Source of the DNA: an uncultured Bacilli bacterium
Lineage (GTDB): Bacteria; Bacillota_I; Bacilli_A; ML615J-28; CAG-698
DNA: 64,000 bases
NCBI GenBank assembly: GCA_934096585.1
Contig: CAKOMG010000002.1
Span: 199,770-263,769 of the forward strand
Reading direction: 5' to 3'
The notes under the pieces were generated by a model. It was given only the letters and a program-made list of their open reading frames with translations, searched no databases and was not told the origin of the DNA. The position numbers and the translations under genes are program-made. Positions 1,922-43,785 of this stretch are shown here, one piece after another; the first letter of the stretch is position 1, and each line of letters starts with the position of its first letter.

Positions 1922-1930
1922 GGTTTATAT

Positions 1931-2707: not shown

Positions 2708-2952
2708 AAACAAAAATAATTACTATGATATTAGGTATGCTATTATTCTTTGGTTGTGTTGCCCTTAGTGTCTTTCTATTTGCGAATAGAAATGATAATA
2801 ACAAAAATGTGTTGTGGGGGATTATAGTGATAGTCTTTGGTCCTTTGATTGATGTTGCTATATGCATGGTAATTTGCGGGGGAATTGAAGCTATAAAAGA
2901 AACTAAAGAATTAGAAGACTTTGTATATGATAGAAAAAAAGATAAAAAGTAA
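2704..2952 (+). CDS. small membrane protein (2 predicted TM)
   Basis: Hydrophobic 82-aa ORF overlapping the upstream stop (ATGA). Followed by a terminator. Confidence 0.4.
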   Translation: MKTKIITMILGMLLFFGCVALSVFLFANRNDNNKNVLWGIIVIVFGPLIDVAICMVICGGIEAIKETKELEDFVYDRKKDKK

Positions 2953-2977
2953 TGCAAATAAAGCATTACTTTTTTTA
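2948..2977 (+). terminator. rho-independent terminator
   Basis: agtaatgc-aaataaa-gcattact followed by TTTTTTT. Confidence 0.7.
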
Positions 2978-3204
2978 TCATTATTGTAAGAGATATTTTT
3001 TATGCAATAATTAAATATTATAAAAAAAACAAAAAATGCTCTGTCAAGATTTCTTATGATTAAAAATTGCTTTCACAAGATTATTTGATAGAACTAATAA
3101 AAAAAGACAAAGAGTATGGCGTTTAGCCATACTCTTTATCATAATAAAACATACAAATTAATAAAACAATAGTAGTCTTATACCACACCGAAAAAAGAAA
3201 TAGA

Positions 3205-3275
3205 AAGGAGAGAAAGTGCTTTCACACATCTCAATTTATTTTATCATATTATTTTTTAAAATGCAATAGTAATTT
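3205..3275 (+). repeat. copy A of a ~70-bp duplicated element (RBS + GTG + 17-codon hydrophobic ORF MLSHISIYFIILFFKMQ, 3216..3269)
   Basis: aaaggagagaaaGTGctttcacac...ttttatcatattat...gcaatag is shared almost exactly with copy B. Confidence 0.5.
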
Positions 3276-3340
3276 TTATTTTTTTATAATATTTGCTTTG
3301 AGTTTGTGCTTTTAAAGTGAAGAAAGACAAAATAACAAAA

Positions 3341-3369
3341 AAGACACCGTAGCTATCGGTGTCTTTTTC
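3341..3369 (+). terminator. rho-independent terminator
   Basis: gacaccg-tagctat-cggtgtc followed by TTTTT. One of the few GC-rich hairpins in the region. Confidence 0.75.
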
Positions 3370-3416
3370 AAATGAAAAAAATAATTAATATCTAAAGAAA
3401 GGATATTATAATAATG

Positions 3417-3585: not shown

Positions 3586-6429
3586 ATGAACTTAATTAAA
3601 AAAATAATTGTAAAATTAAAAATCAAAAAAATTCTTATAAATATAAATAATTATTCTTTATTTACAATAGAAACTAATTATTTAAAAGGATTAACTAATT
3701 GCAATGATAAAAAAATCAAAGAATTAGTTAATAATACATTAAAACAAATTGATGAACATAATGAAATTGTAAATCAATGTAGTTTAAAATTAAATAGTTT
3801 AAATTTGGATTTAAAAGAAATTATTCAGGCTCCAATACATTATGATATAAATGAATATAATAATCTTTATAATAATTTAAAACTATTTAAGATTAGTGAT
3901 GTAGTTATAAAACAAAAAATAAATAAGATTAAAGAAATTATTGATAAATATGATAATATCAAAGAACAATATCTATTGTATATTTATTTAAGTGATTTAT
4001 ATGAAAGTAAAAAGAATCATTATATTGATCAACAAGAAGCAATTGATGTAGTTAATAAAATTGATAATTGCTTTAAGAAAATTAATTTAAAAAATGAGTA
4101 TTATGATTTCGCATTATTTCATAACTTTAAACAAACTATTGATATTTTAAATAACAATTTTATAAACACTAATTTAAAAGATTGCATTTTTGATAATGTC
4201 AATAATCTTAGTTTAGATGATGAGCAAAGAAAAAGTATCTTACAAGATGATGTTTCCAATTTAGTAATTGCGGGTGCTGGAAGTGGTAAAACTTTAACTA
4301 TTTGTGGAAAAATAAAATATTTACTTGAAAAGCAAAATATAAATCCAGATGAAATATTAGTTTTATCATATTCAAAAAGTTCTAGTGAAGACTTAAATAA
4401 AAAAATTATAAATATTAATCCTAATATTAAAGTTAAAACATTTCATTCTTTGGGTTTAGAAATTATTCAAAGTTCTTTGAATAAAAAACAAACTATAGAT
4501 GATCAATATGATCATATAGTTGAAGAATATTTTAGTAAAGGATTATATGAAAAAAGAGGCTTATCAAAAACAATAATGATATATTATTCTTTATATTTGA
4601 CACCTATTGATGAAGATGAACATTTTGAAGAATTATATGAATATTTTGAATCTTTAAAGCAAAAGAAATTAATAACATTAAAAAAAGAAAAAGTAAAAAG
4701 TGTACAAGAATTAATGATTGCCAATTATTATTTTATTAATGGTATTAATTATGAATATGAAGCTTCATATAAAATTGATACGAGTACAGATGAAAAAAGA
4801 CAATATACACCTGACTTTAAATTAACTGATTTTGAAGATTTATATCATGAACATTATGGAATAGATGAAGAAGGCAATACTCCACAATTTTCTAAAGAAG
4901 AAGAAAAAGAATATATCAATGGAATGATTTGGAAAAGGAGTGTACACGAAAAGTATGAAACAAAATGTATTGAAACTTATTCATACCAGTTTTCTGATGG
5001 AACAATTTTTGATAACTTAGATAAAGAATTAGAACAATACGGAATTGTTAAAAAGCCAATTACTTTCAAAGACTTTATGAATACACTAGCATCAAATTAT
5101 GATGGTAATAATTTTAGTTCTTTAATTAGACTTATTAAAACATTTATAAATCTTTATAAGACTAAATATGCTAATAATAGTTATTTTGATGAACTTAAAA
5201 ATCAAGTATTTTCTTCAACATATCAAAAGAATAGAACTTCATACTTCATTGATATTTGTAAAGATGTTTATAATTATTATTATGAAAAATTAAAGAGTGA
5301 GAATAAAATAGACTTTGATAATATGATTTATGATGCTATTGATTACCTGTCCGATTTAAATAATTTTAAATATAAATATATTATTGTTGATGAATTCCAA
5401 GATATTTCAGTTAGTAGAATGCGATTATTAAAAGCATTGACGTATCACGGGAGTTCTAAATTATTTGTTGTTGGCGATGATTGGCAGGCTATTTATAGAT
5501 TTTCTGGATGTGATATTAATATCTTTTTAAATTTTGATAAGTATTTTCCAATGGCATCAATTAGTTATATTACAAAAACATATCGAAATTCTTATGAACT
5601 TCAAAAGATTGTTGAACCATTTATTACCGCAAATCCTGCACAAATAAAAAAGAATTTACGATCGGACATCCACTTAAATAATCCAGTTATAATTTTTTAC
5701 TATGATAAAGATAAAACATTAACTTTATATGAAATTTTTAAAGAAATATATAAGGAAAAAAGTGATGCTAGTATACTGTTATTAGGTAGAAATAATAAAG
5801 ATTTAGATAAAATAAATAAAATGACATATAGCAAAAAAGATGGTAAATTAATATTTTTATCTTATGAAACTTTTAATGTAACATTTAAAACTGTACATAG
5901 TTCAAAAGGATTAGAAGATGAGTATGTTATTTTACTTAATGCGGATGATTGTACAAATGGTTTCCCTAACAAAATTGAAGATGATAGAGTGCTGAATTTA
6001 GTATTAAGTGAGAAGGATGAATATAAATTTTCTGAAGAAAGAAGACTATTTTATGTAGCTTTGACAAGAACAAAATCGAAATGTTATATAATTGTTGATG
6101 CACATAGACCATCAATATTTGTAAAAGAAATAATAGATAATTGCATCATTGGTAATGAAAGTAAGTTTCCAATTGAGAAAAAATATCACTGTCCAAAGTG
6201 TAAAGGTAAGACATTAGTACTAAAAAGAGGAGATAAAAGGAATTTTTATTGTTGCACTAACTATCCTTATTGCGACTATATTACTAGTAATACCAGGATG
6301 GTTGAAAATCAAATTATTTGTCCTAAGTGTGGCCACTATATGGTTAGAAGACAAAACACAAGGGATGGATCCTATTTCTATGGATGTAGTAATTACCCGA
6401 ATTGTACTTTTACTAGAAGGTTCAATTAG
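3586..6429 (+). CDS. UvrD/PcrA-family SF1 DNA helicase with two C-terminal topoisomerase-type C4 zinc ribbons
   Basis: Walker A IAGAGSGKT. Motifs IIVDEFQD, VVGDDWQAIYRFSG, TVHSSKGLEDEYV and YVALTRTK. C-terminal CPKC...CCTNYPYCDY and CPKC...GCSNYPNC. The N-terminal ~220 aa is K/N-rich. Confidence 0.8.
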   Translation: MNLIKKIIVKLKIKKILININNYSLFTIETNYLKGLTNCNDKKIKELVNNTLKQIDEHNEIVNQCSLKLNSLNLDLKEIIQAPIHYDINEYNNLYNNLKLFKISDVVIKQKINKIKEIIDKYDNIKEQYLLYIYLSDLYESKKNHYIDQQEAIDVVNKIDNCFKKINLKNEYYDFALFHNFKQTIDILNNNFINTNLKDCIFDNVNNLSLDDEQRKSILQDDVSNLVIAGAGSGKTLTICGKIKYLLEKQNINPDEILVLSYSKSSSEDLNKKIININPNIKVKTFHSLGLEIIQSSLNKKQTIDDQYDHIVEEYFSKGLYEKRGLSKTIMIYYSLYLTPIDEDEHFEELYEYFESLKQKKLITLKKEKVKSVQELMIANYYFINGINYEYEASYKIDTSTDEKRQYTPDFKLTDFEDLYHEHYGIDEEGNTPQFSKEEEKEYINGMIWKRSVHEKYETKCIETYSYQFSDGTIFDNLDKELEQYGIVKKPITFKDFMNTLASNYDGNNFSSLIRLIKTFINLYKTKYANNSYFDELKNQVFSSTYQKNRTSYFIDICKDVYNYYYEKLKSENKIDFDNMIYDAIDYLSDLNNFKYKYIIVDEFQDISVSRMRLLKALTYHGSSKLFVVGDDWQAIYRFSGCDINIFLNFDKYFPMASISYITKTYRNSYELQKIVEPFITANPAQIKKNLRSDIHLNNPVIIFYYDKDKTLTLYEIFKEIYKEKSDASILLLGRNNKDLDKINKMTYSKKDGKLIFLSYETFNVTFKTVHSSKGLEDEYVILLNADDCTNGFPNKIEDDRVLNLVLSEKDEYKFSEERRLFYVALTRTKSKCYIIVDAHRPSIFVKEIIDNCIIGNESKFPIEKKYHCPKCKGKTLVLKRGDKRNFYCCTNYPYCDYITSNTRMVENQIICPKCGHYMVRRQNTRDGSYFYGCSNYPNCTFTRRFN

Positions 6430-6634: not shown

Positions 6635-7486
6635 ATGAATGATGAAAAATTTTTAAAAGCATTTAAAATGTTTGATGATTTTGGTGCTAAAAGTTGTGAC
6701 AATAAAACTGCTTTAGAGTTATTGAAGCAATTTCATGACACTAAATGGAAGACTCTTGTTGATTTCTTTCCAGCAATCAACAATGGAATGATGGTTATAG
6801 GATTTGATGATATTGATCATAATGTTTGTGTTTCATATTATAAACAGGTTGCAAAGGCAGCTGATTATAAAGCTTTATGTCATGCTTTTATTTATGGTGT
6901 ATTACATAATAAGCCTGAATATGAATATGCATTACTTGCATATTTATATTTAATGCATTTAGAAATGCATAAATATAATTTTGTTAATGGAAAATGTGAT
7001 GTTTGTCATATGTTTGATGTTAAACAAATGACTAAACAACAACAGTTCATTGAAGCTAATAATATTATGTATGATTTATGTGTTAAGGGTAAGGTTAATG
7101 AATTAGATTTTAATTCAGCAACTCTTATTCTTAAATACTTTAGAACTTTAAAAGAAGTAGTAGTAGATAAAAGTGATTATGATAAGTTTATTAAAGCATT
7201 AAATCTTATAAAAGATGATGATAATATGAAACCTAATGATTATGTCAATGTTTTATATTCAGAACACTATTTTGAAGGTTCAAAAGATGCTTTAACAAAT
7301 GTTGTTAATATACTTGGATATTTAAATATATTGCATCATCCTGATGTATTAGAGGAAGAGGAAATGAAATCACAATATGGATTTGATCCAAATAGTGAGT
7401 TTAAGTATCCAGTTCAATTATGGAATTCATCTTTTGGATATGATAAAAAGAGAGTAAAAGAATTATTTGGGGATATGTTTAAATAA
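6635..7486 (+). CDS. hypothetical protein
   Basis: ORF with an upstream RBS-like aaggat. No recognisable motif. Confidence 0.5.
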   Translation: MNDEKFLKAFKMFDDFGAKSCDNKTALELLKQFHDTKWKTLVDFFPAINNGMMVIGFDDIDHNVCVSYYKQVAKAADYKALCHAFIYGVLHNKPEYEYALLAYLYLMHLEMHKYNFVNGKCDVCHMFDVKQMTKQQQFIEANNIMYDLCVKGKVNELDFNSATLILKYFRTLKEVVVDKSDYDKFIKALNLIKDDDNMKPNDYVNVLYSEHYFEGSKDALTNVVNILGYLNILHHPDVLEEEEMKSQYGFDPNSEFKYPVQLWNSSFGYDKKRVKELFGDMFK

Positions 7487-30413: not shown

Positions 30414-30630
30414 GTAATTAAATAATCATAATTAAATATACCTTCCTAAATTTAACAAGGCTGATATACCCTTGTAATAAAGTATATCTAAAAATGAATA
30501 ATAAAATAATCCATAAAGAGATGGCGAGAGACAAGCTCAATGACCCATCAGCAACTTACAGTAAAATGCAAAGTGCTAAAGCTTGAACGATGGAATCAGT
30601 GAAAGGCTTCCATCATAGAAGCCTTTTTTG
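30414..30630 (+). ncRNA. candidate ~215-nt structured ncRNA (class unknown) or an unusually long terminated leader
   Basis: No ORF. Locally GC-enriched with multiple hairpins (acaagg-loop-ccttgt; gatgg-loop-ccatc). Ends in the intrinsic terminator aggcttc-catcata-gaagcct + TTTTTT. Confidence 0.45.
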
Positions 30631-30670: not shown

Positions 30671-31240
30671 ATGAAATGTAAATTTGTTTTGCAAAGTTGT
30701 AATATACTTAAAAAAAATAGTAAAAAAAGAAAATTGATTTATGTGAATGACTATTTTGTTTTTAATTTAACAAAAACATATAAAGACATTATTGACGAAT
30801 ATATAGATGAAGGTATGATTATTATTAAAAAAAGTTGTTCATATAAGTTAGTAGAAAAAATACTTTTAGAAAATAAATATATCTACCGGCCAAGCTTATA
30901 CTATTTAAAATACAATAGAAAGTATAGTTTAAGAAGCATTGTTTATATGATTAAAAAACCAAATATTTTGAATGATAAACTATTTATAGAAAAAATAAAA
31001 GTATTATTAAAACAATCAGGTTGTAAATCAATACTATTTATAAATAAAACTCAGGAAGTTTATATTGATTTAAAAAAGAATAAAAATAAATGTAAAGAAA
31101 CAAATAAAAAAAGACTTTATAAAAAATATAAAGGCGTTCTTATACCATGCTATGGAATTTATCTATATAGAAATAATCATTATTCAATAGATAGTGGTGA
31201 ATTTCAAGCAGGTTTTAGATATAGGTATACACGTTTTTAA
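30671..31240 (+). CDS. hypothetical K-rich protein
   Basis: RBS aaaaggaaaaa precedes the ATG at 30671; the track starts at an upstream TTG. Confidence 0.45.
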   Translation: MKCKFVLQSCNILKKNSKKRKLIYVNDYFVFNLTKTYKDIIDEYIDEGMIIIKKSCSYKLVEKILLENKYIYRPSLYYLKYNRKYSLRSIVYMIKKPNILNDKLFIEKIKVLLKQSGCKSILFINKTQEVYIDLKKNKNKCKETNKKRLYKKYKGVLIPCYGIYLYRNNHYSIDSGEFQAGFRYRYTRF

Positions 31241-31335: not shown

Positions 31336-32577
31336 ATGGAGCAATTTAATAAAATTATAGGATATGAAAATGTAAAAAAAGAATTAATTACAATTAGTGA
31401 TTACTTTAATAAAACGGATTTATGTAGACAACACAATGTTAAGTTACCTAAAGGAATTCTTCTTTATGGGGATTCAGGATGTGGTAAAACATTATTTTTA
31501 AAAGAATTTTGTAAGGTAACTAATAAATATGTAATAAATGTTCAAGGATGCAGTGATGATATAATTAAAGAAATTAGCGATGATTTTAAAGAAGCACGTG
31601 TTATAGGAAATACTGTAATAATTATAGATGAGTTAGACTTACTAATAAACAAAGATTATAGAATAGTTAGATTGTTGCAATCATATTTGGATGGATTTGA
31701 AGATTATGATGGAATTTTTGTAGTAGCAACAACTAATAATGTTGGAAAAATAGAAAATTCATTATTAAGAGAGGGGAGATTTGATAGAAAAATTAAAGTA
31801 GATTTACCAAATGAAAAAACAAGAAAGGAATTAATTGATTATTACATAAGACAATTAGGTCTTGATGTAAATGTTGATTCTGAATATTTATCAAAAATCA
31901 TGGTCGATAGATCTTGCAGTTTTATTCAAACAATTATTAATGATTGTTATTTGAGATTTAATCAAAACATTACAACTGATAATATTGATTATTCATATAA
32001 TGTTATTGCATATGGAAACACAAATGATTATATAAAAAATGATATAAATAAAACAATAGCCATTCATGAAGCAGGACATATTGCCTTAACATATAAAAAT
32101 AGAAAGTATTTTACTTTTTATAAAGCATCAATTAACACAAATTCAAATAAAATAAATGGAGTTTCAAAACTTTATGATGCAAAAGAACAAAATGATGATT
32201 TAGAAGAGTATATCGCAAAAATTGAAATTGATATTGCAGGTTTTTTAACAACATACAATTTACTAAAAATAAAAGATGGAGGTTCTTATGGAGATTTAAA
32301 AGATGCTATTTATAATGCAAGATTTTTAATCAATAGTTTAGGATACAAAATGCCAAGAAATGTATTGAGAGAATATGACCAATTTGAGGGTAGAAATGAA
32401 ACAGAAATTAACTGTCATCGCAATGAAATTTTCGTGAGAAAATTGATGAAAAAATGTGAAAGAAATGTAAAAAAATACATTATTAAAAATAAAAAGAAAA
32501 TATATGATATAGCAAATCAATTGTATGAAAGAGGATCAATTAAACAAAATGAAGTAATGGAAATAATGGAGAGGTAA
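31336..32577 (+). CDS. soluble FtsH-like protease: AAA+ ATPase fused to an M41-type HExxH metalloprotease. No transmembrane N-terminus
   Basis: Walker A GDSGCGKT. Walker B IIIDELD. Sensor-1 VVATTNN. REGRFDRKI. Protease motif TIAIHEAGHIAL. Confidence 0.7.
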   Translation: MEQFNKIIGYENVKKELITISDYFNKTDLCRQHNVKLPKGILLYGDSGCGKTLFLKEFCKVTNKYVINVQGCSDDIIKEISDDFKEARVIGNTVIIIDELDLLINKDYRIVRLLQSYLDGFEDYDGIFVVATTNNVGKIENSLLREGRFDRKIKVDLPNEKTRKELIDYYIRQLGLDVNVDSEYLSKIMVDRSCSFIQTIINDCYLRFNQNITTDNIDYSYNVIAYGNTNDYIKNDINKTIAIHEAGHIALTYKNRKYFTFYKASINTNSNKINGVSKLYDAKEQNDDLEEYIAKIEIDIAGFLTTYNLLKIKDGGSYGDLKDAIYNARFLINSLGYKMPRNVLREYDQFEGRNETEINCHRNEIFVRKLMKKCERNVKKYIIKNKKKIYDIANQLYERGSIKQNEVMEIMER

Positions 32578-32580
32578 AAA

Positions 32581-34257
32581 ATGAAAATAAAAAGAAAAAA
32601 TAAAGAAAAAGAAGAATTTATAGAAAACTATAAGAACTATTTAATAAATAATTGGGAAATGATTAAGGATTATGTAACTAATCGTACTATGAATATTAAA
32701 GTGAATAAGGAATGCTGGCCTGAAGATTTTCTACCAAATAATTATTTTTATGAAAAGAAAGGGTTCAATGAGATTACAAAATATAATAAAATACCAATAT
32801 ATCAATTGCTTTATTTAAATGGTATGGATGATATGTTTCAAATCGATAAATATGGAGCTATATTTTATTTAAGTGCTATAAAAAAGATTAATAATTCATC
32901 AAAATTGATTCTTGAGCCACTTGATAATAGAAAAAAATTATATGATGATTATGATTATAATTTGTTTATTAATTATAATAGTTATAATAGTTTATTTATG
33001 GGTTTTAGTGAAGAAGAAATCAAAAATAGAATAACAGATGGTTTAATAATTAAAGTGATTGACAATCATTTAGAATTTGAAAAGTATTTTAAATTAAATG
33101 ATTATGATCTTGGCGAATTACAGACAACAGAATTGCCTAGAGTAGCATCTAGATTAATAAAAAATAATAAATTTAATGACTTATCTATTTTAGAAAAAGA
33201 TGAAATCAATAAAATAAATTATTATGATTTTTTAAAAAAAATTTATAATTATGTTTCAAATATTGATGAACAAGAATTGAATGATATATATAAGAAGAGT
33301 TTATCTTTATTTTGTGATATTTGTTTGATTGCTTTTATTTTTATGTCTAAAATTGTTTATTTAAATAAAGTTAATGGCAAAACAAGAAAGTTTAATTATA
33401 AACTTTTCGATGATGAGAATAATGAAATTCTTTCAAAAACAGTTGATAATATTAGTCCATTTTTTATAAAAAATGAGATAATTAATTATGAATATAAAAG
33501 TAAACTAAAATTAGAAGGATTAAATTTTGAAATACAAGAAATTATAGATTATAAACAAAGAATATTAGATGATATGCTAGAAGAATATGTTAATTTGTTA
33601 GGAATGGATGGTGCAGTAAATAAAGCAAAAACATGGGATAATAGAGTAATACATTCGATTGCACATTCATTGATTTATCATTGCAAGGATCCTGAAACTC
33701 GATACAAGGCTATTGATGTATCTATAGAGTTGGTTAAACTTAATATTGATAACTTTATAAACAAAACTATATTTGGATGTTCTAGAGTTGATTATTATTT
33801 TATTTTAGAAGATATCACATTGATAATTGATGTATTATTAGACTCTAACATTCTTTCAACGCATAACTGTAGAAAGTATTTTAATATACCTAATGATTAT
33901 CATTATGATAATTTGTTAGCATTTGAATATTTGAAAAAGGGATATAAGCTGGTTTTACGATTCGGCGTAAATTATAAATTAATGTATTTATATGGATTAA
34001 TTTTATACAAAGAAATTTTTACAAAGAATACTAAAGAAGAAGGTTTACAAATCATAAAACAATATAATGAGCATTTAGAACATGACTTTGATGTCGCTTT
34101 AGCAAGGTATTGGCATTATTTGAAAGATGAAAAAAACTATGATAATGAACAATCGATTCAAGCATATATAGATAATAAATTAGAAAAGGTTGAAAAAATT
34201 AAACATGATTATTACGCCAATTGTAGTCAATGGAAAAATAGTAGCTCAAATTTATGA
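32581..34257 (+). CDS. hypothetical 558-aa protein, co-operonic with the FtsH-like gene (3-nt gap)
   Basis: ORF with RBS. No recognisable motif. Confidence 0.5.
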   Translation: MKIKRKNKEKEEFIENYKNYLINNWEMIKDYVTNRTMNIKVNKECWPEDFLPNNYFYEKKGFNEITKYNKIPIYQLLYLNGMDDMFQIDKYGAIFYLSAIKKINNSSKLILEPLDNRKKLYDDYDYNLFINYNSYNSLFMGFSEEEIKNRITDGLIIKVIDNHLEFEKYFKLNDYDLGELQTTELPRVASRLIKNNKFNDLSILEKDEINKINYYDFLKKIYNYVSNIDEQELNDIYKKSLSLFCDICLIAFIFMSKIVYLNKVNGKTRKFNYKLFDDENNEILSKTVDNISPFFIKNEIINYEYKSKLKLEGLNFEIQEIIDYKQRILDDMLEEYVNLLGMDGAVNKAKTWDNRVIHSIAHSLIYHCKDPETRYKAIDVSIELVKLNIDNFINKTIFGCSRVDYYFILEDITLIIDVLLDSNILSTHNCRKYFNIPNDYHYDNLLAFEYLKKGYKLVLRFGVNYKLMYLYGLILYKEIFTKNTKEEGLQIIKQYNEHLEHDFDVALARYWHYLKDEKNYDNEQSIQAYIDNKLEKVEKIKHDYYANCSQWKNSSSNL

Positions 34258-34413: not shown

Positions 34414-34599
34414 ATGGATGAAATTTTAAAAGATAGATATGGGCATAAAATAGGAACAATAAAAGAAGTGGGAAATAAATTGTATATTTATGATGAACAT
34501 GGTCATAAAGCAGGATATTATGATCCAAATACAAATAAGACATATGATGAACATGGTCATTTTGTTGGAACTGGAAATTTATTAACTTCATTGATATAA
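34414..34599 (+). CDS. 61-aa YD-repeat-like small protein
   Basis: RBS AAAGGAG precedes the ATG. Three degenerate repeats: RYGHKIGTI, YIYDEHGHKAGYYDPNTNKT and YDEHGHFVGTG. Confidence 0.5.
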   Translation: MDEILKDRYGHKIGTIKEVGNKLYIYDEHGHKAGYYDPNTNKTYDEHGHFVGTGNLLTSLI

Positions 34600-34638
34600 A
34601 GTGATTATTGCTTTATTATATATCTAATTATTCATGAA

Positions 34639-34668
34639 TGCTATCTTTAAAAGCTTTACTTATGTAGA
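34639..34668 (+). terminator. probable intrinsic terminator (A/U-rich stem)
   Basis: aaaagct-loop-agctttt followed by TTTT. Confidence 0.4.
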
Positions 34669-34961
34669 GCTTTTTTTTGTATAAAAAATACAATTTTTTA
34701 ATTTTCATTATTTTTTTATTGCATATAATCGAATACTATGATATAATAAGATTAACTAGAAGAGGTTATTTTTTTCAAAGTATTTGAGTAATGTAATTTT
34801 CTTATTGCTTTTTCGCAAAAGTTTTAAGAGGAAAATATTACAACTATTATTTTGACGAATGAAACCTTATTTATAAGGATTAGTCTATCTAAAAATAGGC
34901 TATCTTTAATCATAAGGTTTTTTTCTTTTTCTAGTAATACATAAAAAGGAGAAAGAAAAGT

Positions 34962-35774
34962 ATGAGAAAAAATTTGAATGATTATTTTGAAAGTGTGGAA
35001 AGAAAAATTGGCTATGAGTTTGAAAATGAAGATTTGTTAAGACAAGCATTTACTAGAAAATCTTATAGTTCAATTTATGGAACTGAAAATAATGAAGTAT
35101 TGGAATTTATTGGTGATAAAGTAATTGATTTGATTGTAGTTAAAGTTATTTCTGATTATTTTGGATTCTATAAATCAGAATCAGCTTATTATGATGAAGA
35201 TAATGATTTAAATGAGTTTTGTATTGTTGCTAATAAAGATGAATCTGATTTTACAGAAATAAAAAAAGAATTAGTATCAAATGAAAACTTGTCAAAAATA
35301 ATTGATAAATTAGATTTTGCAAAATTAATGTGGATGGGAGATAACGACATCAATAATCATATTGAAAAAGAGCAAAAAGTTAAAGCTGATTTATTTGAAG
35401 CAATAGTTGGTGCAATAACCATAGATTGTGATTGGAATATGGAAATATTGGAAGAGGTTATAAAAAGATTATTATATATTAATAATACACTGAAAAATGT
35501 TTCTACGGAAGAAGAAAGACCAGAAAAATTTACTGTTGAAAAAGCAATTAACACATTAAAAGAGCTTGCTGAACAAGGAAAATGTTCTGAACCTATATAT
35601 GAAATATCAGATGAACAAATATTTCAAGATGGAGAATATTGGTGGTCTTGTGATTGCACTGTTAATAGTTGGCATATTTCAGAAAGTGCACTTTCTAAAA
35701 GTAAAAAAGGTGCTAAAAAGTATACTGCTTATTTAGTTCTATGCACTAGATATAATCTAGATGTCGAGGAATAA
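34962..35774 (+). CDS. class-1 RNase III paralogue (catalytic domain with ~45-aa insertion, plus C-terminal dsRBD)
   Basis: RKIGYEFENEDLLRQAFTRKSYS. NEVLEFIGDKVID (E/D catalytic). ADLFEAIVGAITID (D/E catalytic). dsRBD-like SKKGAKKYTAYLVL. Confidence 0.75.
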   Translation: MRKNLNDYFESVERKIGYEFENEDLLRQAFTRKSYSSIYGTENNEVLEFIGDKVIDLIVVKVISDYFGFYKSESAYYDEDNDLNEFCIVANKDESDFTEIKKELVSNENLSKIIDKLDFAKLMWMGDNDINNHIEKEQKVKADLFEAIVGAITIDCDWNMEILEEVIKRLLYINNTLKNVSTEEERPEKFTVEKAINTLKELAEQGKCSEPIYEISDEQIFQDGEYWWSCDCTVNSWHISESALSKSKKGAKKYTAYLVLCTRYNLDVEE

Positions 35775-35777
35775 ATT

Positions 35778-36338
35778 ATGGAAAATTCACAAATTGAAGT
35801 GTTAAAGAAAAAGTATTCTCAAATAATTGATGATTTAATTAAAGTAAATAAGAAGTTTTATAAGCTTAATTATGAAATAAAATGGATTTTTATCTTTGAT
35901 GAAAATGTGGCAAATGTTTGTGCTTTTGATGCTAAGAAAGGTATAATAAAAATAAATGTGGTGACAGTTGCTTATTCTTATGAAAATAATCAACCTTTAT
36001 TTATTGAGTGTTTTCTATTACATGAAATAAGACACTTTTATCAACAATTAATAATTAATGAGTACTTAAGAAATCCAAATGAATGTATAAATAGTGTTAT
36101 TGCACAACAATGGCTTTTTGAAAAGAAAAATTATATTAAGCCTCTTGATGAAAATGGGCACTTAAATGTAAATTATTACCTACAGGACATAGAAATTGAT
36201 GCTTTTTCGTTTTCATATGCCGTTATAATATATAAATATGGTGATTTAAAATATCTTAAAATACCAAGTGCTTATCAAAATGAATATTTTAAAGAACAAT
36301 TGAATACTTGGATTGAACTATTTAAAAAAGAACAATAA
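35778..36338 (+). CDS. small HExxH protein (putative zincin-like metallopeptidase, ImmA/IrrE- or SprT-like), coupled to the RNase III gene
   Basis: CFLLHEIRHFYQQ. 4-nt intergenic gap. Confidence 0.5.
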   Translation: MENSQIEVLKKKYSQIIDDLIKVNKKFYKLNYEIKWIFIFDENVANVCAFDAKKGIIKINVVTVAYSYENNQPLFIECFLLHEIRHFYQQLIINEYLRNPNECINSVIAQQWLFEKKNYIKPLDENGHLNVNYYLQDIEIDAFSFSYAVIIYKYGDLKYLKIPSAYQNEYFKEQLNTWIELFKKEQ

Positions 36339-36360
36339 ATATGTTCCGATGCTAAATTTA

Positions 36361-36589
36361 TTAATCCACGACTAGGTTCTTGGAAAAAAGATGTTTATGA
36401 GTTAATAGATAAAAAATGGGTGAGTATTTTAATCTGCAAAATATTTATGACTATGAGAATTATCTTAAAAATTTATATCCATCAAATAATAACATAAGGC
36501 CTAAAATTAGACAAGTTCTACAGCAACTTCGAGATATAGGACTTATAAAATTTCTTGGATCAGGGTCTTATAAAAAATTAATAAAATAA
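36361..36589 (+). pseudogene. frameshifted gene remnant (about 75 codons across two frames)
   Basis: Frame A reads NPRLGSWKKDVYELIDKKWVSIL. Frame B continues NLQNIYDYENYLKNLYPSNNNIRPKIRQVLQQLRDIGLIKFLGSGSYKKLIK*. No start codon or RBS. Confidence 0.4.
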
Positions 36590-36673
36590 TAGTCTTAATT
36601 CTTTTGCTTAGTATTTTTTAACCATATAACTAATATTATTAATGTATTTTATTATTATGTAAGGAGACTAAAA

Positions 36674-36997
36674 ATGAAAAAAACAATTTTAGCTATTATA
36701 TTATTTTTCATATTACTATTTATTGCTGGCGGATGTACTGCTGTCTTTCAAGGAGTAGAAGCGCTATGGCAAGCTATTATAGGATTTTTACCTATTTTTA
36801 AACCTGCCATTGAACAATCATTTAAAGATTATTTTACTTCTGCATACTTTATTGTTGGTGTAATAATTTTTATAGGTTCACTTTTTGGTATTACAATAAA
36901 CGTAAAAAATAGACATGTTTTATATGTGTTGATTTCTACAATACTGACTATTATTTCTTTATTAAGTATTATTACTAATTTGGTGGTGTGTAAATAA
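36674..36997 (+). CDS. small membrane protein (3 TM)
   Basis: Hydrophobic 107-aa ORF with RBS AAGGAGA. Its stop abuts the next ATG. Confidence 0.5.
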   Translation: MKKTILAIILFFILLFIAGGCTAVFQGVEALWQAIIGFLPIFKPAIEQSFKDYFTSAYFIVGVIIFIGSLFGITINVKNRHVLYVLISTILTIISLLSIITNLVVCK

Positions 36998-37495
36998 ATG
37001 AAAGAAAATGCTATATTATTATTAATAAAAGAAATTAAAAAAAGTTTAGAATCAGGAAATTATTTATCCGCATTAATTGTTGCATTAACAATTCCAGATA
37101 TTTGTGGGAAAATATTATATCCAAAAGAAACGAATGGTAAAAGATATAAAAAATGGTTTGACAAATATATTGGTGATTACAAAAATAGTCCGATATATAA
37201 GGATTTACCTGAATGCATAGGATGGACTAACATGAATGGCGAAAAATTTTATGCATTAAGATGTGCTATGCTTCATGAAGGCTCAGATGATATTGTTGAT
37301 AAAATCAAAATAGACAAATTCAACCTTTATTATGGAAACAATTCTATCATCGAAAAACATTGTGTTGAGTATAGAGAAGATTCCTTATTTGATGGTTCAG
37401 TAATAGAACATCCTAAAATTGAATCATTAGATATTAACGTATATGAAATATGTCAAAAAATAATTTTAGCTGCTAATTTTTTTTTTAAAAAATGA
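36998..37495 (+). CDS. hypothetical protein, coupled to the membrane protein
   Basis: The ATG follows the upstream TAA directly. Confidence 0.5.
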   Translation: MKENAILLLIKEIKKSLESGNYLSALIVALTIPDICGKILYPKETNGKRYKKWFDKYIGDYKNSPIYKDLPECIGWTNMNGEKFYALRCAMLHEGSDDIVDKIKIDKFNLYYGNNSIIEKHCVEYREDSLFDGSVIEHPKIESLDINVYEICQKIILAANFFFKK

Positions 37496-37747
37496 AGTTG
37501 ATGATTTATCAAAGCTCCCAACAATTCAATACAATCTTGGTATACCTTCAATATTTTTATCAAATACTAATTTAAAATAAATATAAAAAGAAAGCAATAA
37601 TTCTATGGATAATCAATCCATAATGATTATTGCTTTTTATTTTAGCTTATTAAAATTAATTTATATATTTTAAATAAATAGTTAAGTTTAAAAAATGAAA
37701 AAAAGATTCATAACTAAATGGTATACTATTAAAAAAAGGAAGGTAAA

Positions 37748-38707
37748 ATGATGGAATTAATCAAAGATTATAGAAATTTAGAAAATGGTTGGAATGGTGG
37801 ACTTTCAGAAGCATATGTTTGTTGTTTAAATCTAATTAATAATAAAAAGGTAAATAATATACTTTTTGATAAAAAACTTACAACAAAAATTCTTGATAAT
37901 AATTATTATATGCTATTACAAATAGTTTTGAAAGAAATTAAAAAATTATTACCTCAAGGGAATGGTAATAAATATATATATGAATGTATAGATTTAGATC
38001 AATTAAACAAGGAATGTGGTAAAAAAATGATTCCAATAGTTGATGAAATTCGAATAAAATATTATTGTGTTATCATAAGAAATATTATTAGTTATTTGAG
38101 TTCTGAAATTGAATTATTTAAAAAGTTAGAAAAAAAGACAGAAGAAGAAAGAAATAAACTGCTAGAAGAAATGGAAAGATATATAATAAGTTATTTTAAT
38201 GTATTTGAAAATCTTCCAAAACAAAATAGTAAAAAAAGTCGTAAAAATGACAATAATAAAAAAGAAACTGTTGAAGATAAAATAATTAATGAGTATATTG
38301 ATCAACTTAATGCATTCGAACAAAAGCCATTTGATCAATATGATTCTTTTGAAAATTACGTTGAAGAAACAATAACTGTTAAAAATAATATTGAAGAAGG
38401 AATTGAAAAAATTAATAGAAATCTTATTAAAAACAGTGTTGAAATAAATGAATTTGCTGAAAAGTATGAAATTAAAGTTGAAGAAGTTGAAAGAATCTTT
38501 ACTAGTGACAATTTTAAAACCTCATTAAGCAATAATCCAGTTGTTGATTGTTATAATTCATATATAAATGAAAATATTATAGGCGAATTTATAAATTTCT
38601 TTGGTCAACTTTTTTCATTTGAATTTAATGATAATTTAGAGGCAAATATTCCAGATTTATTTGAAACTCGTTCACAATACTATCATGGTAAATATAGAGA
38701 AAATTAA
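37748..38707 (+). CDS. hypothetical protein (coiled-coil-rich)
   Basis: ORF with RBS AAAGGAAGG. Confidence 0.5.
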   Translation: MMELIKDYRNLENGWNGGLSEAYVCCLNLINNKKVNNILFDKKLTTKILDNNYYMLLQIVLKEIKKLLPQGNGNKYIYECIDLDQLNKECGKKMIPIVDEIRIKYYCVIIRNIISYLSSEIELFKKLEKKTEEERNKLLEEMERYIISYFNVFENLPKQNSKKSRKNDNNKKETVEDKIINEYIDQLNAFEQKPFDQYDSFENYVEETITVKNNIEEGIEKINRNLIKNSVEINEFAEKYEIKVEEVERIFTSDNFKTSLSNNPVVDCYNSYINENIIGEFINFFGQLFSFEFNDNLEANIPDLFETRSQYYHGKYREN

Positions 38708-38728
38708 TCAAATTTTGAGTAAAGTTAT

Positions 38729-41700
38729 ATGAATAATATAGAAAGAATAGTTAATATAATAAAAGAAAAGATAAAAAGCAATCCTATAATTTTATTTAAT
38801 TGCTTTTTTACTGAGAAGATGCTATATGAATTATTAGTTGAAGAAGCAATTGATGAAAGAATCTTTTATTACATGATGTTTTTATATGACTTTGGATATG
38901 TTTCTGATGTGATATTTAAAAATAAAGATATTGCAATAAATAATATTAAAAATAAGAATAATGAATCGCAACTACCAATTCAAGAAATTAATTATTGGAA
39001 TTTAATCTTATCTGATGAAATAATTAAATGCATTAAGGAAACACATTTTAATGAACGAAAGTTAAATGAAAATGTTGGTAAAATTATATTTTTGAATGAA
39101 CCTTCATTTAATGATTCAAATTATTCAGGTGTTGATGGTGAATATGAAATTTATAAAGAACTAAAAACTTTTAATGATCAAAAATATAATGATTTTTTAT
39201 ATGCAAATTATAGAGTTAAAATACATAATAAAGATTATGAATCTGATTTTATAATAGTTTCAAATAATGTCATAATAATTATTGAAGTTAAAAATTGGCA
39301 TGGAGAGATTACAATCGATAAGTATGGTAATATTACAACTAATGGTTCTTTAGGATATAAAAATCCAATTTCTCAAAATAATAGACATGTTAATGATTTA
39401 AGAACTTTTCTTATAAATAAATTTGATATTGATATTCCTATTAAATCTGTAATAGTTTTTGGCAAAAAGTCACATGTGATTAATATTGATAAAGAATATA
39501 ATAGGGACACTGAAATAATTAATTATGATGAATTGAATTATTTTATACAAAAAACTATTCATAATGATGAAAATAAAAAGATTTTTGATAATAAAATCAT
39601 ATCATCATTCATTAATGTGTACAACAGTTTCGATAACACAAATTATATTTTTTATCCTGAAGATTTTATTAATTTAGAATTAGCAAATGAGTATTATAAA
39701 TATCAAGAAGTTGTTAAAGATTCAAATTATAAAAAAGGTAAAAAAATATTTCACTATTCAATAGATTCTACTAATAGGCAATTAGAAAATGATATGAATA
39801 CTATTTATTTTGATAAAATCATTAAATATAATATTCGTTTTAATGATGATATTAAGTATAATTGTTTTATAATCAATAGCTTTTTAAAATTCAATGTTAA
39901 ATGTAGATTTAAATATGCAAATTTAATTGCTGTAATTTATAATTATTTGCTTAGAAATAATGAAATAGATTCTTCATTAGATATACCTTTATTTATAAAT
40001 CATTATGATTATAATAATATTACAGATATAAGAGAACAATATCCTAAAATATTTAAATTAATGATAGTTATACTATTGCTTATTAAAAATAATTATTTTA
40101 CATTAAATGAAATGAATATTGAAATACCTTTTTTTATAGAAGATAAATATGAAAGTTTATTAACTATAGCAATCAAATGCTTGAATAATTATTTAGAAAA
40201 AATTTCATTATTAACCATAGGTAAAATATTAAAATTAAAAATTCAAGATGATGAATCATATGAAGTAGGATTTGAAAAAGATTCTAATTTGGATATTATG
40301 ATTTTAGATTATAATAATAAAAAATTCTCACAAGAAATCGAAGAAAATTCTTTATGGATTGAAGATAATATTAGATATAATATAAACGACAAAAATGATT
40401 ATATTTTAATTGATTTTTTAAAAGAATTTACACCTTTTACAGCATTTAAAGAAGGGCAATTAGATTTTATAAAAAATATTCTCAATTTTCCAACAAACAA
40501 AATTGTAATTATGCCTACGGGAAGCGGTAAATCATTAATATATTATTTTTGTGCAATTTTACAACCGAAAGTAACATTTATTGTTTCGCCTAACGATATT
40601 TTGATTAGTAATCAAATAAATAATTTAAAGAAAATTCATAGATATACTAATGTAGTTAAATTAAGTTATAAAACAAAAATAGGCTTAAATCAAATAATTT
40701 ATTCTACACCTATTATTTTACAAGAGGATTCACTTATTAGAGACATAATAGATTGTGACAACATATATAGTTTTGTTTTAGATGAAGTTCATTGTTTATC
40801 TTTCCTAAGTCATAATTTTAGACCAGAATATTTCACATTATCATCTAAACTAAATATGTTTTTCAAAAAGACATTATCTTTGGGTTTTACCGCAACTTCT
40901 GATTACGAAGTTACAAAAGATTTAGCAAAACAATTAACAATTAATTTTTCAGAACAGGATATCTTGGAAAATATAAATATGAGAACAGATAGGCTTTCAT
41001 ATGATATTAGATGTTATGATACAAGGGAAGAACAGTTAATTGCTTTGTTTGAATTATCCAAAAGGATTAGTGTACTTAAGAATATTGTTTTTGTAAAAGA
41101 TGAAAAAACAGCAAATGAAATATTTAAAATAATAGGAACAAATAAAAGTTTAATTTTTTCACAAGATGATCAGGGTGTCTTAGATTTATTTATAGATTTA
41201 AATAGTGGTTTTAATTTTTTAATTTGTGGATATGAATTAGGGATAGGATTAGATTTAGGTAATATCAGCAATGTTATACATTTTGGAATTCCTTACTCAA
41301 AAATGGATTATGTTCAACAAATAGGTCGTGCAGGAAGAAATGGAGAATATTGTAAATCTTACGTATTATATTTAAATCAACAGAAATTTGAATCCTATTT
41401 ATTTGATAGAAATTTAGAATACGATTCATTTATTAGTAAATTAATTGCAGATGAAAAAAACGATTATACAATGAGTTATTTAAATATATTTAAAAAATTT
41501 TTAAATTATAATAAACAAAAGAAAGAATTTAAAAATATTCTATTACAAGTTATGGAAGATTATTTTAATCGCGGATTTACTACTACCATTTTGACTGAAA
41601 ACAATGATTTCTGTTTTTATATTTTACAAGCACTTGGAATTATATCATACTGGGGAAAAAATAAAAATCAAGTGGTACTTTGCTTGAATAAATTAAATAA

Positions 41701-42442
41701 TATTAGTTTAATTAAAAATAACTTTCGAACATACATGTCTATTATTGGAAATAATGATATGAATGAAAAAATATCTTATTGCAATGATATGACTAAATTA
41801 GCATTATTATTTTATGATGTTTTTGTAGAAAACTACATTATTTCTAAAAGAAACCAAGTGTTTGAACTTCTAGAAATGTTAGAAAGATATAAAGACCAAA
41901 TGAATGTTTCAAATGAAATTAATTCAGAAATTGAGAATTTTTTTGCATTGCCTTTTATGCGTGTTTCTAAATGTGAAAATTGGATAAGAAAAGTCCCTTT
42001 AATGGATATTAACTCTAATATTTTATCTTTTAATTCAGACGATATAGATAATATTATCAATGTCGTTGATTTAATAAATTATGCAACACCTAGTGTTTAT
42101 TACTTAAAACTATTGCGAGAATATGTAAATAATAGTGAAATAAAAGATTTTACAAATAAGATTGAACAGATTTGTAATAAATTAGATTCATACAATATTT
42201 TTAATTTATTTATATCTTTTGGTGATGTTTTAAAAAAATTATCGAGCAATGAAAAAAAGAATTTTGATAATTATTTATTACAAGTTTTATCTATGATGTC
42301 AAATTTAATTTCAATAGATAATTTTAATGTGATGTCAAAAAAATATATAAATAATTTATCAATTGAATCAAATAAATACTATGCATTAGCTATTTATTTT
42401 GACGAATATATTAAAAAAATGAGGAAAGATAAAAATGGATGA
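38729..42442 (+). CDS. NERD-domain / RecQ-family SF2 helicase fusion protein (1237 aa)
   Basis: NERD-like DFIIVSNNVIIIIEVKNWHGEI. RecQ motif I MPTGSGKSLIYY. Motif II VLDEVHCLSFLSHNFRPEY. Motif VI QQIGRAGRNGEY. Confidence 0.7.
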   Translation: MNNIERIVNIIKEKIKSNPIILFNCFFTEKMLYELLVEEAIDERIFYYMMFLYDFGYVSDVIFKNKDIAINNIKNKNNESQLPIQEINYWNLILSDEIIKCIKETHFNERKLNENVGKIIFLNEPSFNDSNYSGVDGEYEIYKELKTFNDQKYNDFLYANYRVKIHNKDYESDFIIVSNNVIIIIEVKNWHGEITIDKYGNITTNGSLGYKNPISQNNRHVNDLRTFLINKFDIDIPIKSVIVFGKKSHVINIDKEYNRDTEIINYDELNYFIQKTIHNDENKKIFDNKIISSFINVYNSFDNTNYIFYPEDFINLELANEYYKYQEVVKDSNYKKGKKIFHYSIDSTNRQLENDMNTIYFDKIIKYNIRFNDDIKYNCFIINSFLKFNVKCRFKYANLIAVIYNYLLRNNEIDSSLDIPLFINHYDYNNITDIREQYPKIFKLMIVILLLIKNNYFTLNEMNIEIPFFIEDKYESLLTIAIKCLNNYLEKISLLTIGKILKLKIQDDESYEVGFEKDSNLDIMILDYNNKKFSQEIEENSLWIEDNIRYNINDKNDYILIDFLKEFTPFTAFKEGQLDFIKNILNFPTNKIVIMPTGSGKSLIYYFCAILQPKVTFIVSPNDILISNQINNLKKIHRYTNVVKLSYKTKIGLNQIIYSTPIILQEDSLIRDIIDCDNIYSFVLDEVHCLSFLSHNFRPEYFTLSSKLNMFFKKTLSLGFTATSDYEVTKDLAKQLTINFSEQDILENINMRTDRLSYDIRCYDTREEQLIALFELSKRISVLKNIVFVKDEKTANEIFKIIGTNKSLIFSQDDQGVLDLFIDLNSGFNFLICGYELGIGLDLGNISNVIHFGIPYSKMDYVQQIGRAGRNGEYCKSYVLYLNQQKFESYLFDRNLEYDSFISKLIADEKNDYTMSYLNIFKKFLNYNKQKKEFKNILLQVMEDYFNRGFTTTILTENNDFCFYILQALGIISYWGKNKNQVVLCLNKLNNISLIKNNFRTYMSIIGNNDMNEKISYCNDMTKLALLFYDVFVENYIISKRNQVFELLEMLERYKDQMNVSNEINSEIENFFALPFMRVSKCENWIRKVPLMDINSNILSFNSDDIDNIINVVDLINYATPSVYYLKLLREYVNNSEIKDFTNKIEQICNKLDSYNIFNLFISFGDVLKKLSSNEKKNFDNYLLQVLSMMSNLISIDNFNVMSKKYINNLSIESNKYYALAIYFDEYIKKMRKDKNG

Positions 42443-43451
42443 TAAAAAAATTGAAATTATAAAAGAACACATAGATTCCTTTGTTAATGATATGGTTGAT
42501 ATTAATAAAATTGAAGAAACATTAAAACTATATTATACTAATATAAAAACACAAGTAGAAGTTTTTACAACTGAATTTAACAAAAATAGAGAATATTTGT
42601 TAAATCAAATTGAAAAAGAGCGAAATCAATTAAATAATTTATCTTCAAATCAAATTGATTTGTTTAAAGAAGAAGCAAGAAAAGAACTAGAAGCTTTTAA
42701 AAAATTTAATAATGATTTAAATGAAAATCATAAGTCTTTTACTAGTGAAATCGAACGAATGATTTCCAATATCATTGAAAAAAATCAAAACCATTTACGA
42801 GATTTATCTTCTCAACAAATTGAATTATTTAAAGAGCAAACCGAAAAGCAAATAAAGAGTAATAATGAGCTAATTGATAATTACAAGCGAAATCAAAATG
42901 AATTTAGTAGTAATTTTAATCAGGCCTTAGTTACTTTAAACAGTTCAATATCAAAATATAATGATGAAAGTATTAGATATTTTGAAAAAAACAATAAATT
43001 AGTTATAGATTGTGAAAATAGATTTCAACAAATTAATAATGATGTTGATAATATTAGTAAAATAATAAAGGATTCAACAACAATAATATCAACAGAATTT
43101 AATAATATTATTCAAGTATTAAATAATTCATACACACAAATTAATGAATTTCTTATTAGTTTTAATAATAGTGTTGAAATTAATAATAAATTAATAAGTG
43201 ATAATTTTATTAAAATGTCAACAGAATTGAATGATGAATTTAATTCTATTTCAACAAAATTTAGTAATATCTTAGATGATAATAATAAAATAAATAATGA
43301 TATTAAACTAAAAATTGAATCGATAAACCAATATAGTGAAGAAAATCGTGAAAATAATAAAATGATTAAAAAACAAATGAAATTCTTGTGTGTTGCAATT
43401 ATTATTAACTTTTTAATTTCATTAGCATTGTTAATTTTATATTTTGTATAA
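42435..43451 (+). CDS. coiled-coil protein with a C-terminal transmembrane anchor
   Basis: Repetitive N/Q/E/K-rich heptad-like sequence ending in FLCVAIIINFLISLALLILYFV. Overlaps the helicase stop by 8 nt. Confidence 0.55.
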   Translation: MDDKKIEIIKEHIDSFVNDMVDINKIEETLKLYYTNIKTQVEVFTTEFNKNREYLLNQIEKERNQLNNLSSNQIDLFKEEARKELEAFKKFNNDLNENHKSFTSEIERMISNIIEKNQNHLRDLSSQQIELFKEQTEKQIKSNNELIDNYKRNQNEFSSNFNQALVTLNSSISKYNDESIRYFEKNNKLVIDCENRFQQINNDVDNISKIIKDSTTIISTEFNNIIQVLNNSYTQINEFLISFNNSVEINNKLISDNFIKMSTELNDEFNSISTKFSNILDDNNKINNDIKLKIESINQYSEENRENNKMIKKQMKFLCVAIIINFLISLALLILYFV

Positions 43452-43470
43452 TATACAAATTTATTTATAA

Positions 43471-43515
43471 AGACAATAATTTTTAAATGGTAATCATTAA
43501 ATTATTGTCTTTTTT
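43471..43515 (+). terminator. rho-independent terminator
   Basis: 12-bp perfect stem agacaataattt/aaattattgtct followed by TTTTTT. Confidence 0.7.
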
Positions 43516-43785
43516 AATTGTTTATTCGAAAACAATTCCTTTTTTTGTAGAAATAACATATAATATAAATGCATATATACCTATTTAATTCGAACTAATA
43601 GTTTAAGCAGCTTAAAATGTCATCAGGCATAAGGAAGTCACAAGACTTTTATATTCAAGATTAAATTGATTTAAACATATTGTTTTACAAGAATGTAAAA
43701 AATTCATTCATAAAATATTACAAAAATGTAATTTATGGGTTGCTTTTTATTACAAAAATGTGTATTATAATATTAGGAGCATTTT

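Follow-up and report, generated by a model that had tools for sequence, protein, structure and literature searches.

A 64-kb stretch of DNA from an uncultured Bacilli bacterium (the window, by which we mean the whole stretch) contains on its + strand an RNase III family gene at 34962-35774 whose 270-aa product is, by sequence and fold criteria, an intact class-1 (bacterial-type) RNase III. The gene belongs to a distinct, horizontally mobile family that temperate phages carry at their lysis/integrase (moron) end and that is also found in defence-type islands. Its conserved partner is a structured 5′ leader of ∼210 nt (34739-34951). These claims of identity, mobility and leader are made with high confidence. 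The joint reading, in which a mobile class-1 RNase III with its own leader is autoregulated by leader cleavage, appears to us moderately probable. A sequence-only reading of the same DNA rightly flagged an unusual accessory RNase III yet picked the wrong partner, a small HExxH protein encoded directly downstream; the object of interest is the leader and RNase III unit with its phage linkage, not the HExxH pairing. The two genes and the block that holds them are:

34962-35774, + strand: RNase III family gene; 270 aa, an RNase III domain with a ∼21-aa insertion and a double-stranded RNA-binding domain (dsRBD) with four invariant cysteines
35778-36338, + strand: HExxH protein gene; 186 aa, putative zincin fold, probable passenger; HEIRH codons at 36021-36035
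34700-36336, + strand: block conserved between strains (promoter, leader, RNase III and HExxH); 94.4% identity to positions 1775-3410 of strain L001 (blastn), with unrelated flanks

An intact class-1 RNase III

The 270-aa frame at 34962-35774 was borne out by an open-reading-frame check, and its product matched the Pfam models Ribonucleas_3_3 (PF14622, 5.9e-17) and Ribonuclease_3 (PF00636, 4.9e-15), both above the cut-off. When 27 family members were aligned, the NEVLEFIGD and KADLFEAIVGA blocks were invariant, as were the acidic residues E45, E48, D52, E94, D143 and E146, so that the catalytic residues are present as had been claimed. By our own count on the E. coli sequence their counterparts are E38, E41, D45, E65, D114 and E117, and profile alignment to the Campylobacter jejuni enzyme (3n3w) puts the invariant acidic residues on the canonical catalytic positions. 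The insertion between the two signature blocks had been estimated at roughly 45 aa. The alignment to 3n3w instead gives ∼21 aa (family positions 67-87), placed between the α3 helix and the E65 equivalent.

The C-terminal dsRBD that had been proposed was also recovered. An AlphaFold2 model (pLDDT 90.7) has α-β-β-β-α topology over residues 192-263, and Foldseek aligned the model at full length (∼255-260 columns) to the RNase III structures of E. coli, Aquifex and Thermotoga. From the topology and the full-length structural alignment together, we conclude that the dsRBD is real. The Pfam dsrm model gave no match to the window protein itself, and the dsRBD call therefore rests on the fold and on the NCBIfam model TIGR02191, whose alignment reaches residue 256. 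TIGR02191 is the rnc equivalog, with a curated cut-off of 166.25 bits; the window protein scored 104.3 bits and thus failed the equivalog test for a housekeeping rnc.

Four cysteines of the dsRBD (C208, C230, C232 and C261; window 35583-35744) are invariant among the 27 aligned members, which suggests a structural metal site absent from canonical RNase III dsRBDs. The encoded enzyme is predicted to be a homodimeric, Mg-dependent endonuclease of the class-1 type, specific for double-stranded RNA (dsRNA). Across three strains the dN/dS of the gene is 0.13-0.23, indicating purifying selection.

Canonical Rnc (TIGR02191; 7r97, 2ez6, 1o0w and 3n3w) is alike in having a single RNase III domain with one C-terminal dsRBD, and in its signature motif, acidic catalytic residues and fold. 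The present family differs in the insertion after α3, the four dsRBD cysteines and the sub-cut-off score. It differs also in its genomic habit, being borne by prophages or islands and often pseudogenised.

A mobile family linked to temperate phages

The family comprises more than 120 clusters at 57-63% identity, with proteins of 270-280 aa, mostly from gut metagenome-assembled genomes (MAGs) labelled Bacilli or Clostridia. GTDB species genomes gave at least 571 matching stretches, the carriers including Acholeplasma equifetale, the Izemoplasma-like ‘Tenericutes MO-XQ’, Anaeroplasmatales, Coprobacillus CAG:698 and Clostridium CAG:288. More distant relatives at 38-49% identity, some of them longer, occur in Lachnospiraceae and Oscillospiraceae. 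The hosts are low-GC gut Bacilli, Mollicutes-like bacteria and Clostridia. In NCBI the members are named ‘ribonuclease III domain-containing protein’ or ‘hypothetical protein’.

The neighbours of the homologues vary by genome and include rpmB/asp23/fakA, groES-EL, GmrSD, integrases and Thoeris. The genes beside which canonical rnc might be expected were not among them: era, recO, smc, ftsY and acpP were absent from the annotated neighbours of all sampled loci. The sequence-only reading had placed the gene in an accessory setting, far from the usual rnc neighbourhood, and this agrees with what we found at the window locus, where recBCD-like genes are followed directly by a strain-variable island. 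Window 36337-43683 is missing from strain L001, and the DNA upstream of the conserved 34700-36336 block is likewise unrelated in that strain. A third strain (L122) retains the RNase III-HExxH pair with yet other flanks (MutH/SNF2/methylase). A search for repeats flanking the block gave only AT-rich chance matches.

A family member is carried by 23 IMG/VR viral contigs. In locus L097 the order is tail/holin, leader and RNase III, phrog_2308, and two large serine integrases. In ∼25 loci the trio of phrog_2308 and two integrases immediately precedes the leader and gene, with a holin further upstream in nine. A decayed version of the trio arrangement is seen in L010, where the leader and gene persist. 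Defence systems also adjoin the gene, namely Thoeris in L035 and GmrSD in L113 and L014. No family member was found in 50,697 GenBank phage records, and a plasmid search gave two distant matches only.

Some features of these prophage ends were recorded in passing. The trio (L035 2125-5693, L097 7093-10585 and ∼25 further) consists of a phrog_2308 HNH-like protein and two adjacent large serine recombinases, and the paired recombinases are ∼45-50% identical. In L014 a tRNA-like sequence lies at ∼5420-5500, between GmrSD and the RNase III leader, and would be consistent with an integration hotspot.

Two copies of the family occur in a single MAG (L046 and L052), and nonsense codons have turned the gene into a pseudogene in L036 (a complete genome), L047, L051, L052 and L058. 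Near-identical copies were found in L036 (CP017948.1), L037, L039, L042, L047, L049 and L051-L053, across differently named taxa; the labels are those of different Acholeplasma, Izemoplasma, Mariniplasma and even ‘Bacillales’. This near-identity, together with the nonsense codons, suggests recent phage-mediated spread followed by decay.

The gene is thus unlike an ordinary housekeeping rnc, as had been supposed: TIGR02191 scores it below the cut-off, it lies in a strain-variable island, and its family is prophage-borne and repeatedly pseudogenised. From the score, the mobility, the decay and the two-copy MAG we infer that the family is probably a paralogue of canonical rnc. The opposite view, that this is a displaced housekeeping RNase III and the organism's only one, is highly improbable. 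It would fit the intact catalytic residues and dsRBD, and no further RNase III was found within the 64-kb window, although the window is little guide to the remainder of the genome. It would not fit the score below the rnc equivalog cut-off, the family members on viral contigs beside integrases, the two copies in one MAG, the nonsense pseudogene in a complete genome or a neighbourhood that differs between strains.

RNase III genes as a class are well known in eukaryotic viruses. Neither a phage-borne bacterial RNase III nor an RNase III defence system turned up in our literature searches.

A structured leader precedes the RNase III gene

Inspection by eye showed a long upstream gap with shared sequence blocks before every sampled homologue, and alignments of this region show compensatory changes. 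In the window the parts of the leader are as follows (SD, Shine-Dalgarno sequence; MFE, minimum free energy):

34739-34747, + strand: extended −10 promoter element TGATATAAT, read from the sequence; a weak −35 element TTGCAT is possible at 34719-34724
34749-34863, + strand: leader RNA core (R1); a 5′ SD-like stretch and small hairpin P0, then a long irregular hairpin; cmsearch 83.8 bits, E 2e-13
34775-34855, + strand: long irregular hairpin of the core; P1 (TCAAAGTA/TATTTTGA), internal loop, P2 and P3-P4; ∼30 bp, imperfect
34755-34765, + strand: 5′ strand of the closing helix, ACTAGAAGAGG, anti-anti-SD; pairs with 34925-34935 (RNAduplex)
34862-34924, + strand: second long hairpin ending in a run of 7 U, intrinsic-terminator-like (RNAfold)
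34925-34935, + strand: U/C-rich stretch CTTTTTCTAGT; 3′ strand of the closing helix, alternatively anti-SD
34946-34951, + strand: SD of the RNase III gene, AAGGAG, read from the sequence; sequestered in the MFE fold of the window leader

In an alignment of homologous loci the −10 block keeps its register immediately 5′ of the leader. A consensus promoter scan names another nearby candidate, TTTTCA-16-TATAAT at 34702-34729. The hairpin at 34862-34924 was missed by a simple terminator scan because its stem is AT-rich. RNAfold gave −47.7 kcal/mol for 34749-34930 (z −5.99), and no tandem repeats were detected in the leader region (34600-34960) by TRF and a repeat finder.

The U/C-rich stretch at 34925-34935 can pair either with 34755-34765 or with the SD region at 34946-34957, and this duality is family-wide. 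Full-length MFE folds gave a closed four-way junction with a free SD in six of eight leaders; those of the window and L030 leaders gave the SD-sequestered alternative.

A covariance model of the leader core (R1; 120 positions, 33 pairs) gave + strand matches in 50 of 87 loci, lying at a fixed distance 5′ of the gene, with E values from 1e-23 to 1e-6. These matches include the Clostridia relatives at 38-49% protein identity, and R1 also matched 15 viral loci. About a dozen more loci gave weak matches at the same position, and no match was obtained for L036, L037, L047 and L049. With 45 sequences aligned to the model, 93.7% of cells in the R1 pairing were paired, compared with 44-58% in slid controls. 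Of the 33 pairs, 21 change on both sides, and the observed values were reached by none of 500 shuffles.

The elements 3′ of the core are conserved as well. All 38 folded leaders have the GACC...GGUC second hairpin with its U-run and a U/C-rich stretch pairing with the SD. The closing helix occurs in compensatory variants (GTCCG/CGGAC, CTAGAA/TTCTAG, GTCAGAG/CTCTGAC, TCTGAAGAA/TTCTTCAGA and ACCGATAAG/CTTATCGGT), and its duplex had a mean z-score of −2.7 against shuffles over 41 loci. An exact leader 20-mer was confined, in IMG/VR, to loci of the RNase III family.

No RNA family of Rfam 15 accounts for the leader. The window leader had no match at the gathering score, the only such match in the window being a SAM riboswitch elsewhere, and for the window and L010 leaders scans at E values up to 10 gave chance-level matches only. 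Shared GA-rich blocks had raised the idea of a T-box or other known leader, and this was ruled out, as no Rfam model matches. A DNA inverted repeat, such as a serine-integrase att site, was likewise rejected: many of the conserved pairs are G-U, which pair on the + strand only. The element is therefore read as an RNA rather than a DNA site, given the conserved G-U pairs, minus-strand covariance model scores ∼90 bits lower than those of the plus strand, and the framing by a promoter, a terminator and an SD switch. We found no description of the leader RNA in the literature.

A tentative scheme for autoregulation

In E. coli, RNase III is autoregulated through cleavage of a stem-loop in its own 5′ untranslated region (UTR), rncO. 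The likeness to rncO (RF00552) lies in an RNase III gene preceded by long hairpins of its 5′ UTR, and the mechanism suggested here would be the same, with self-cleavage lowering expression. The leader shows no sequence or structure similarity to rncO in the Rfam 15 search, and it differs in adding an intrinsic terminator, an SD/anti-SD pair and a covarying long-range closing helix.

In the scheme that we propose, most transcripts would stop at the leader terminator, and in those that read through the closing helix would hold the SD open. Accumulated RNase III would then cut both long hairpins, parting the 5′ anti-anti-SD strand from the body of the mRNA; the cuts might be made by the encoded enzyme or by host RNase III. 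After cleavage the anti-SD would shut the SD, or the message would be destabilised. The outcome would be homeostatic negative autoregulation, which would keep a potentially harmful nuclease low and let expression rise once other dsRNA titrates the enzyme. By analogy this mechanism is plausible, and we rate it a little short of an even chance; that the enzyme cuts its leader, which way the regulation runs and what biological role it serves are all matters that we infer. The position at the moron end beside defence systems leads us to favour a role in competition with other mobile elements. The main alternative role would be phage-internal, such as sib-like control of integrase mRNA.

Several points weigh against the joint reading. 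Around 37 of the 87 loci are without a strong R1 match, some being truncated contigs or pseudogenes and others giving a weak match at the same position, so that some family members may have a divergent leader or none. Because the alignment used for covariation had been fitted to the R1 model, the pairing percentages are inflated. Autoregulation rests on the analogy with E. coli rncO and on hairpins of substrate-like length. Finally, RNase III and HExxH are kept intact in three strains though both flanks change, and with the purifying selection on the genes this makes a functional link within the species possible.

If the reading is true, gut Bacilli, Mollicutes-like bacteria and Clostridia have temperate phages that encode a dsRNA nuclease of their own. 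A ∼210-nt leader outside Rfam, with a terminator, an SD switch and a long-range helix, would be a case of RNase feedback control outside E. coli rncO. The siting beside Thoeris, GmrSD and further defence genes at prophage ends would bear on phage-phage competition or on antisense-regulated elements.

Other possible roles for the leader and the enzyme

The leader might instead sense something other than the enzyme (as a small-molecule riboswitch, or as the target of another protein or a small RNA), with RNase III as the regulated output. The multi-helix junction, the near-invariant internal loops and the terminator and SD-sequestering platforms are riboswitch-like, and the two alternative folds are close in energy. 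The leader motif is, however, tied to one gene family only, whereas a metabolite riboswitch will usually control several. The helices of the leader are also longer than is usual and resemble dsRNA, fitting an RNase III substrate, and RNA-binding proteins often autoregulate via their own leaders. We consider such a sensor unlikely.

The enzyme could also serve the phage's own gene control, by processing prophage or lytic transcripts or by sib-like retroregulation of integrase mRNA. Retroregulation of lambda int at sib is established and uses host RNase III. The present arrangement is alike in that hairpins resembling RNase III substrates lie directly downstream of integrase genes in many prophage loci: in ∼25 loci the leader begins <100 nt beyond the second integrase gene and on its strand, and in L097 the gene sits between holin and integrases. 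Two differences from lambda are that the phage here brings its own RNase III and that the hairpins stay with the RNase III gene even in loci that lack an integrase. Many chromosomal loci, including that of the window, keep the leader and gene in the absence of integrases, both outlast prophage decay in L010, and no member was found in the 50,697 GenBank phage records. These observations leave control of phage genes with a small share of the probability.

A further possibility is that the terminated transcript of ∼170 nt, with its two long hairpins, serves as an RNA decoy or antitoxin by occupying RNase III, in the manner of a type III toxin-antitoxin (TA) system. Phage-induced transcription shut-off would then free the nuclease and bring about abortive infection. 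ToxIN has the layout promoter, structured RNA, terminator and endoribonuclease gene, and the order here matches it; type III TA systems (ToxIN, AbiQ/antiQ) are also alike in their mobile or defence location, which here is in prophage or defence islands. Stem sequence and internal loops of the leader are, moreover, conserved beyond the needs of pairing. Against this, the RNA differs from those of type III TA systems in having no tandem repeats (by the TRF and repeat-finder searches above), the nuclease is from a different superfamily, unrelated to ToxN/AbiQ-type toxins, and nothing indicates that the protein is toxic. Control in cis fully explains the SD/anti-SD/anti-anti-SD logic. We judge the decoy improbable.

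Only slightly better placed, and still quite unlikely, is a broader proposal in which the phage-borne RNase III and its leader form a new RNA-protein surveillance module. The terminated leader would act as decoy or antitoxin and would also gate translation; loss of leader transcription, or a flood of foreign dsRNA on superinfection, would unleash dsRNA cleavage with an immune or abortive effect. The variable coupled downstream genes (here the putative HExxH zincin, in other lineages SymE-like, acidic, N/Q-rich or XRE proteins) would be lineage-specific modulators or effectors.

The downstream HExxH gene is not a conserved partner

The sequence-only reading had paired RNase III with the 186-aa HExxH protein. 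The frame does follow RNase III directly on the + strand (35778-36338), with a gap of 3 nt. The 3′ end of the RNase III gene itself contains an SD sequence, GAGGA (...GAGGAATAAATTATG). The geometry of co-transcription is present in this species, and the HExxH gene is probably a co-transcribed, translationally coupled downstream passenger. Its dN/dS of 0.22-0.43 in the three strains indicates purifying selection.

The HEIRH motif, which had been singled out, proved invariant in all five HExxH homologues. Relatives of the protein form four clusters at 90% identity in a search of 5.8 billion proteins, and a profile search of 1.84 billion proteins gave 234 representatives. Searches of PADLOC, PHROGs and NCBIfam returned nothing usable; the one marginal match in PADLOC-DB 2.0 was PDC-M07B (E 0.0099), without a qualifying stretch. 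With Pfam, distant or fused relatives gave only incidental GNAT, SEC-C and OEP fusions. The protein is a putative zincin-fold member of a small orphan family, and the nearest known proteins are the minigluzincins (selecase, projannalysin and proabylysin) and other minimal zincins (SprT/Wss1 and M48).

The check for conservation of the pair elsewhere was run, and it found the pair only in three strains of one species. By tblastn, an HExxH homologue was present at none of 80 genome loci with an RNase III family member, the 23 viral loci lying outside this search. Outside this species the HExxH homologues follow other genes: a radical-SAM gene in L002, genes without assignment in L120, and in L003-L006 a 276-aa protein near a Shedu gene. 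The 276-aa gene was considered as a hidden RNase III and rejected, as it has no similarity and no Pfam match.

In other lineages the RNase III gene is often trailed by a tightly coupled, unrelated small open reading frame (ORF), and in many loci by nothing. An N/Q-rich ORF of ∼55 aa follows it in eight loci (L010, at 6831-6998, L017, L020, L022, L024, L029, L041 and L063), an acidic ‘DNMAMDxDSG’ ORF of 57-86 aa in five (L077, L083, L088, L089 and L091) and a SymE_toxin-like ORF of 88 aa (1.3e-6) in two (L038 and L044). An XRE helix-turn-helix (HTH) protein follows in two loci, and Thg1-like and nucleotidyltransferase proteins were also seen. The small ORFs that recur in this way overlap the stop codon of RNase III or directly adjoin it. 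Three or more unrelated families are represented, of which only the SymE-like one has a Pfam assignment. Their products may modulate the nuclease, or the ORFs may be cargo that occupies a fixed slot. In the window, this downstream slot is filled by the HExxH gene.

A dedicated two-gene immune or toxin-antitoxin module, for instance a nuclease effector with a metallopeptidase sensor or antitoxin, would account for the 3-nt spacing with an internal SD, for the inheritance of the pair as a single block in three strains with both flanks swapped, and for the purifying selection on both genes. The defence-like surroundings in the window and in L122 also speak for it, as do the coupled small ORFs (SymE-like, XRE HTH, acidic and N/Q-rich) that trail RNase III elsewhere. 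Its probability is nevertheless low: the pair is confined to one species, with no HExxH homologue at the 80 genome loci, HExxH homologues elsewhere adjoin unrelated genes, many family members have no downstream partner, and in PADLOC-DB 2.0 RNase III had no match and neither protein matched convincingly. The HExxH pairing is probably an accident of gene order within this species, or a local addition, rather than a two-gene system.

Surroundings of the gene in the window

The GC content of the window is very low, at ∼20-29%. The surroundings of the RNase III gene are defence-like, with NERD-RecQ/DpdF-like, ZorA-like and IetA-like genes. The 7.3-kb segment at 36337-43683 that is absent from L001 encodes a DpnI_C-domain fragment (36416-36589), a transmembrane (TM) protein, a phrog_18591-like protein of 165 aa and an unassigned protein of 319 aa. 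It also encodes a 1237-aa NERD and RecQ/DpdF/PsyrT-like helicase (38729-42442) and, overlapping this, a ZorA-like protein of 338 aa (42435-43451). The helicase and ZorA-like genes look like a candidate two-gene defence system that is as yet uncharacterised.

Upstream, a SAM-I riboswitch (RF00162, 56.9 bits) lies at 30508-30630 on the + strand, right after recD, with its own terminator hairpin at 30602-30630. It precedes three ORFs, at 30671-31240 (189 aa, unassigned), 31336-32577 and 32581-34257 (558 aa, unassigned), of which the second encodes a TM-less, FtsH-like AAA+M41 protein that is weakly IetA-like. These genes are not those of methionine or SAM metabolism, and they lie in the strain-variable island. 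It would be unusual for defence-like genes to be under a SAM-sensing switch, and one may speculate that phage SAM lyases are the thing sensed.

Just upstream of the RNase III promoter, a strong terminator was found at 34649-34674. A 61-aa ORF (34414-34599, + strand) also lies just upstream of this promoter; it has only a weak Bflower_2 match and contains an exact internal repeat of 18 nt (34489-34506 and 34543-34560; YDEHGH motif).

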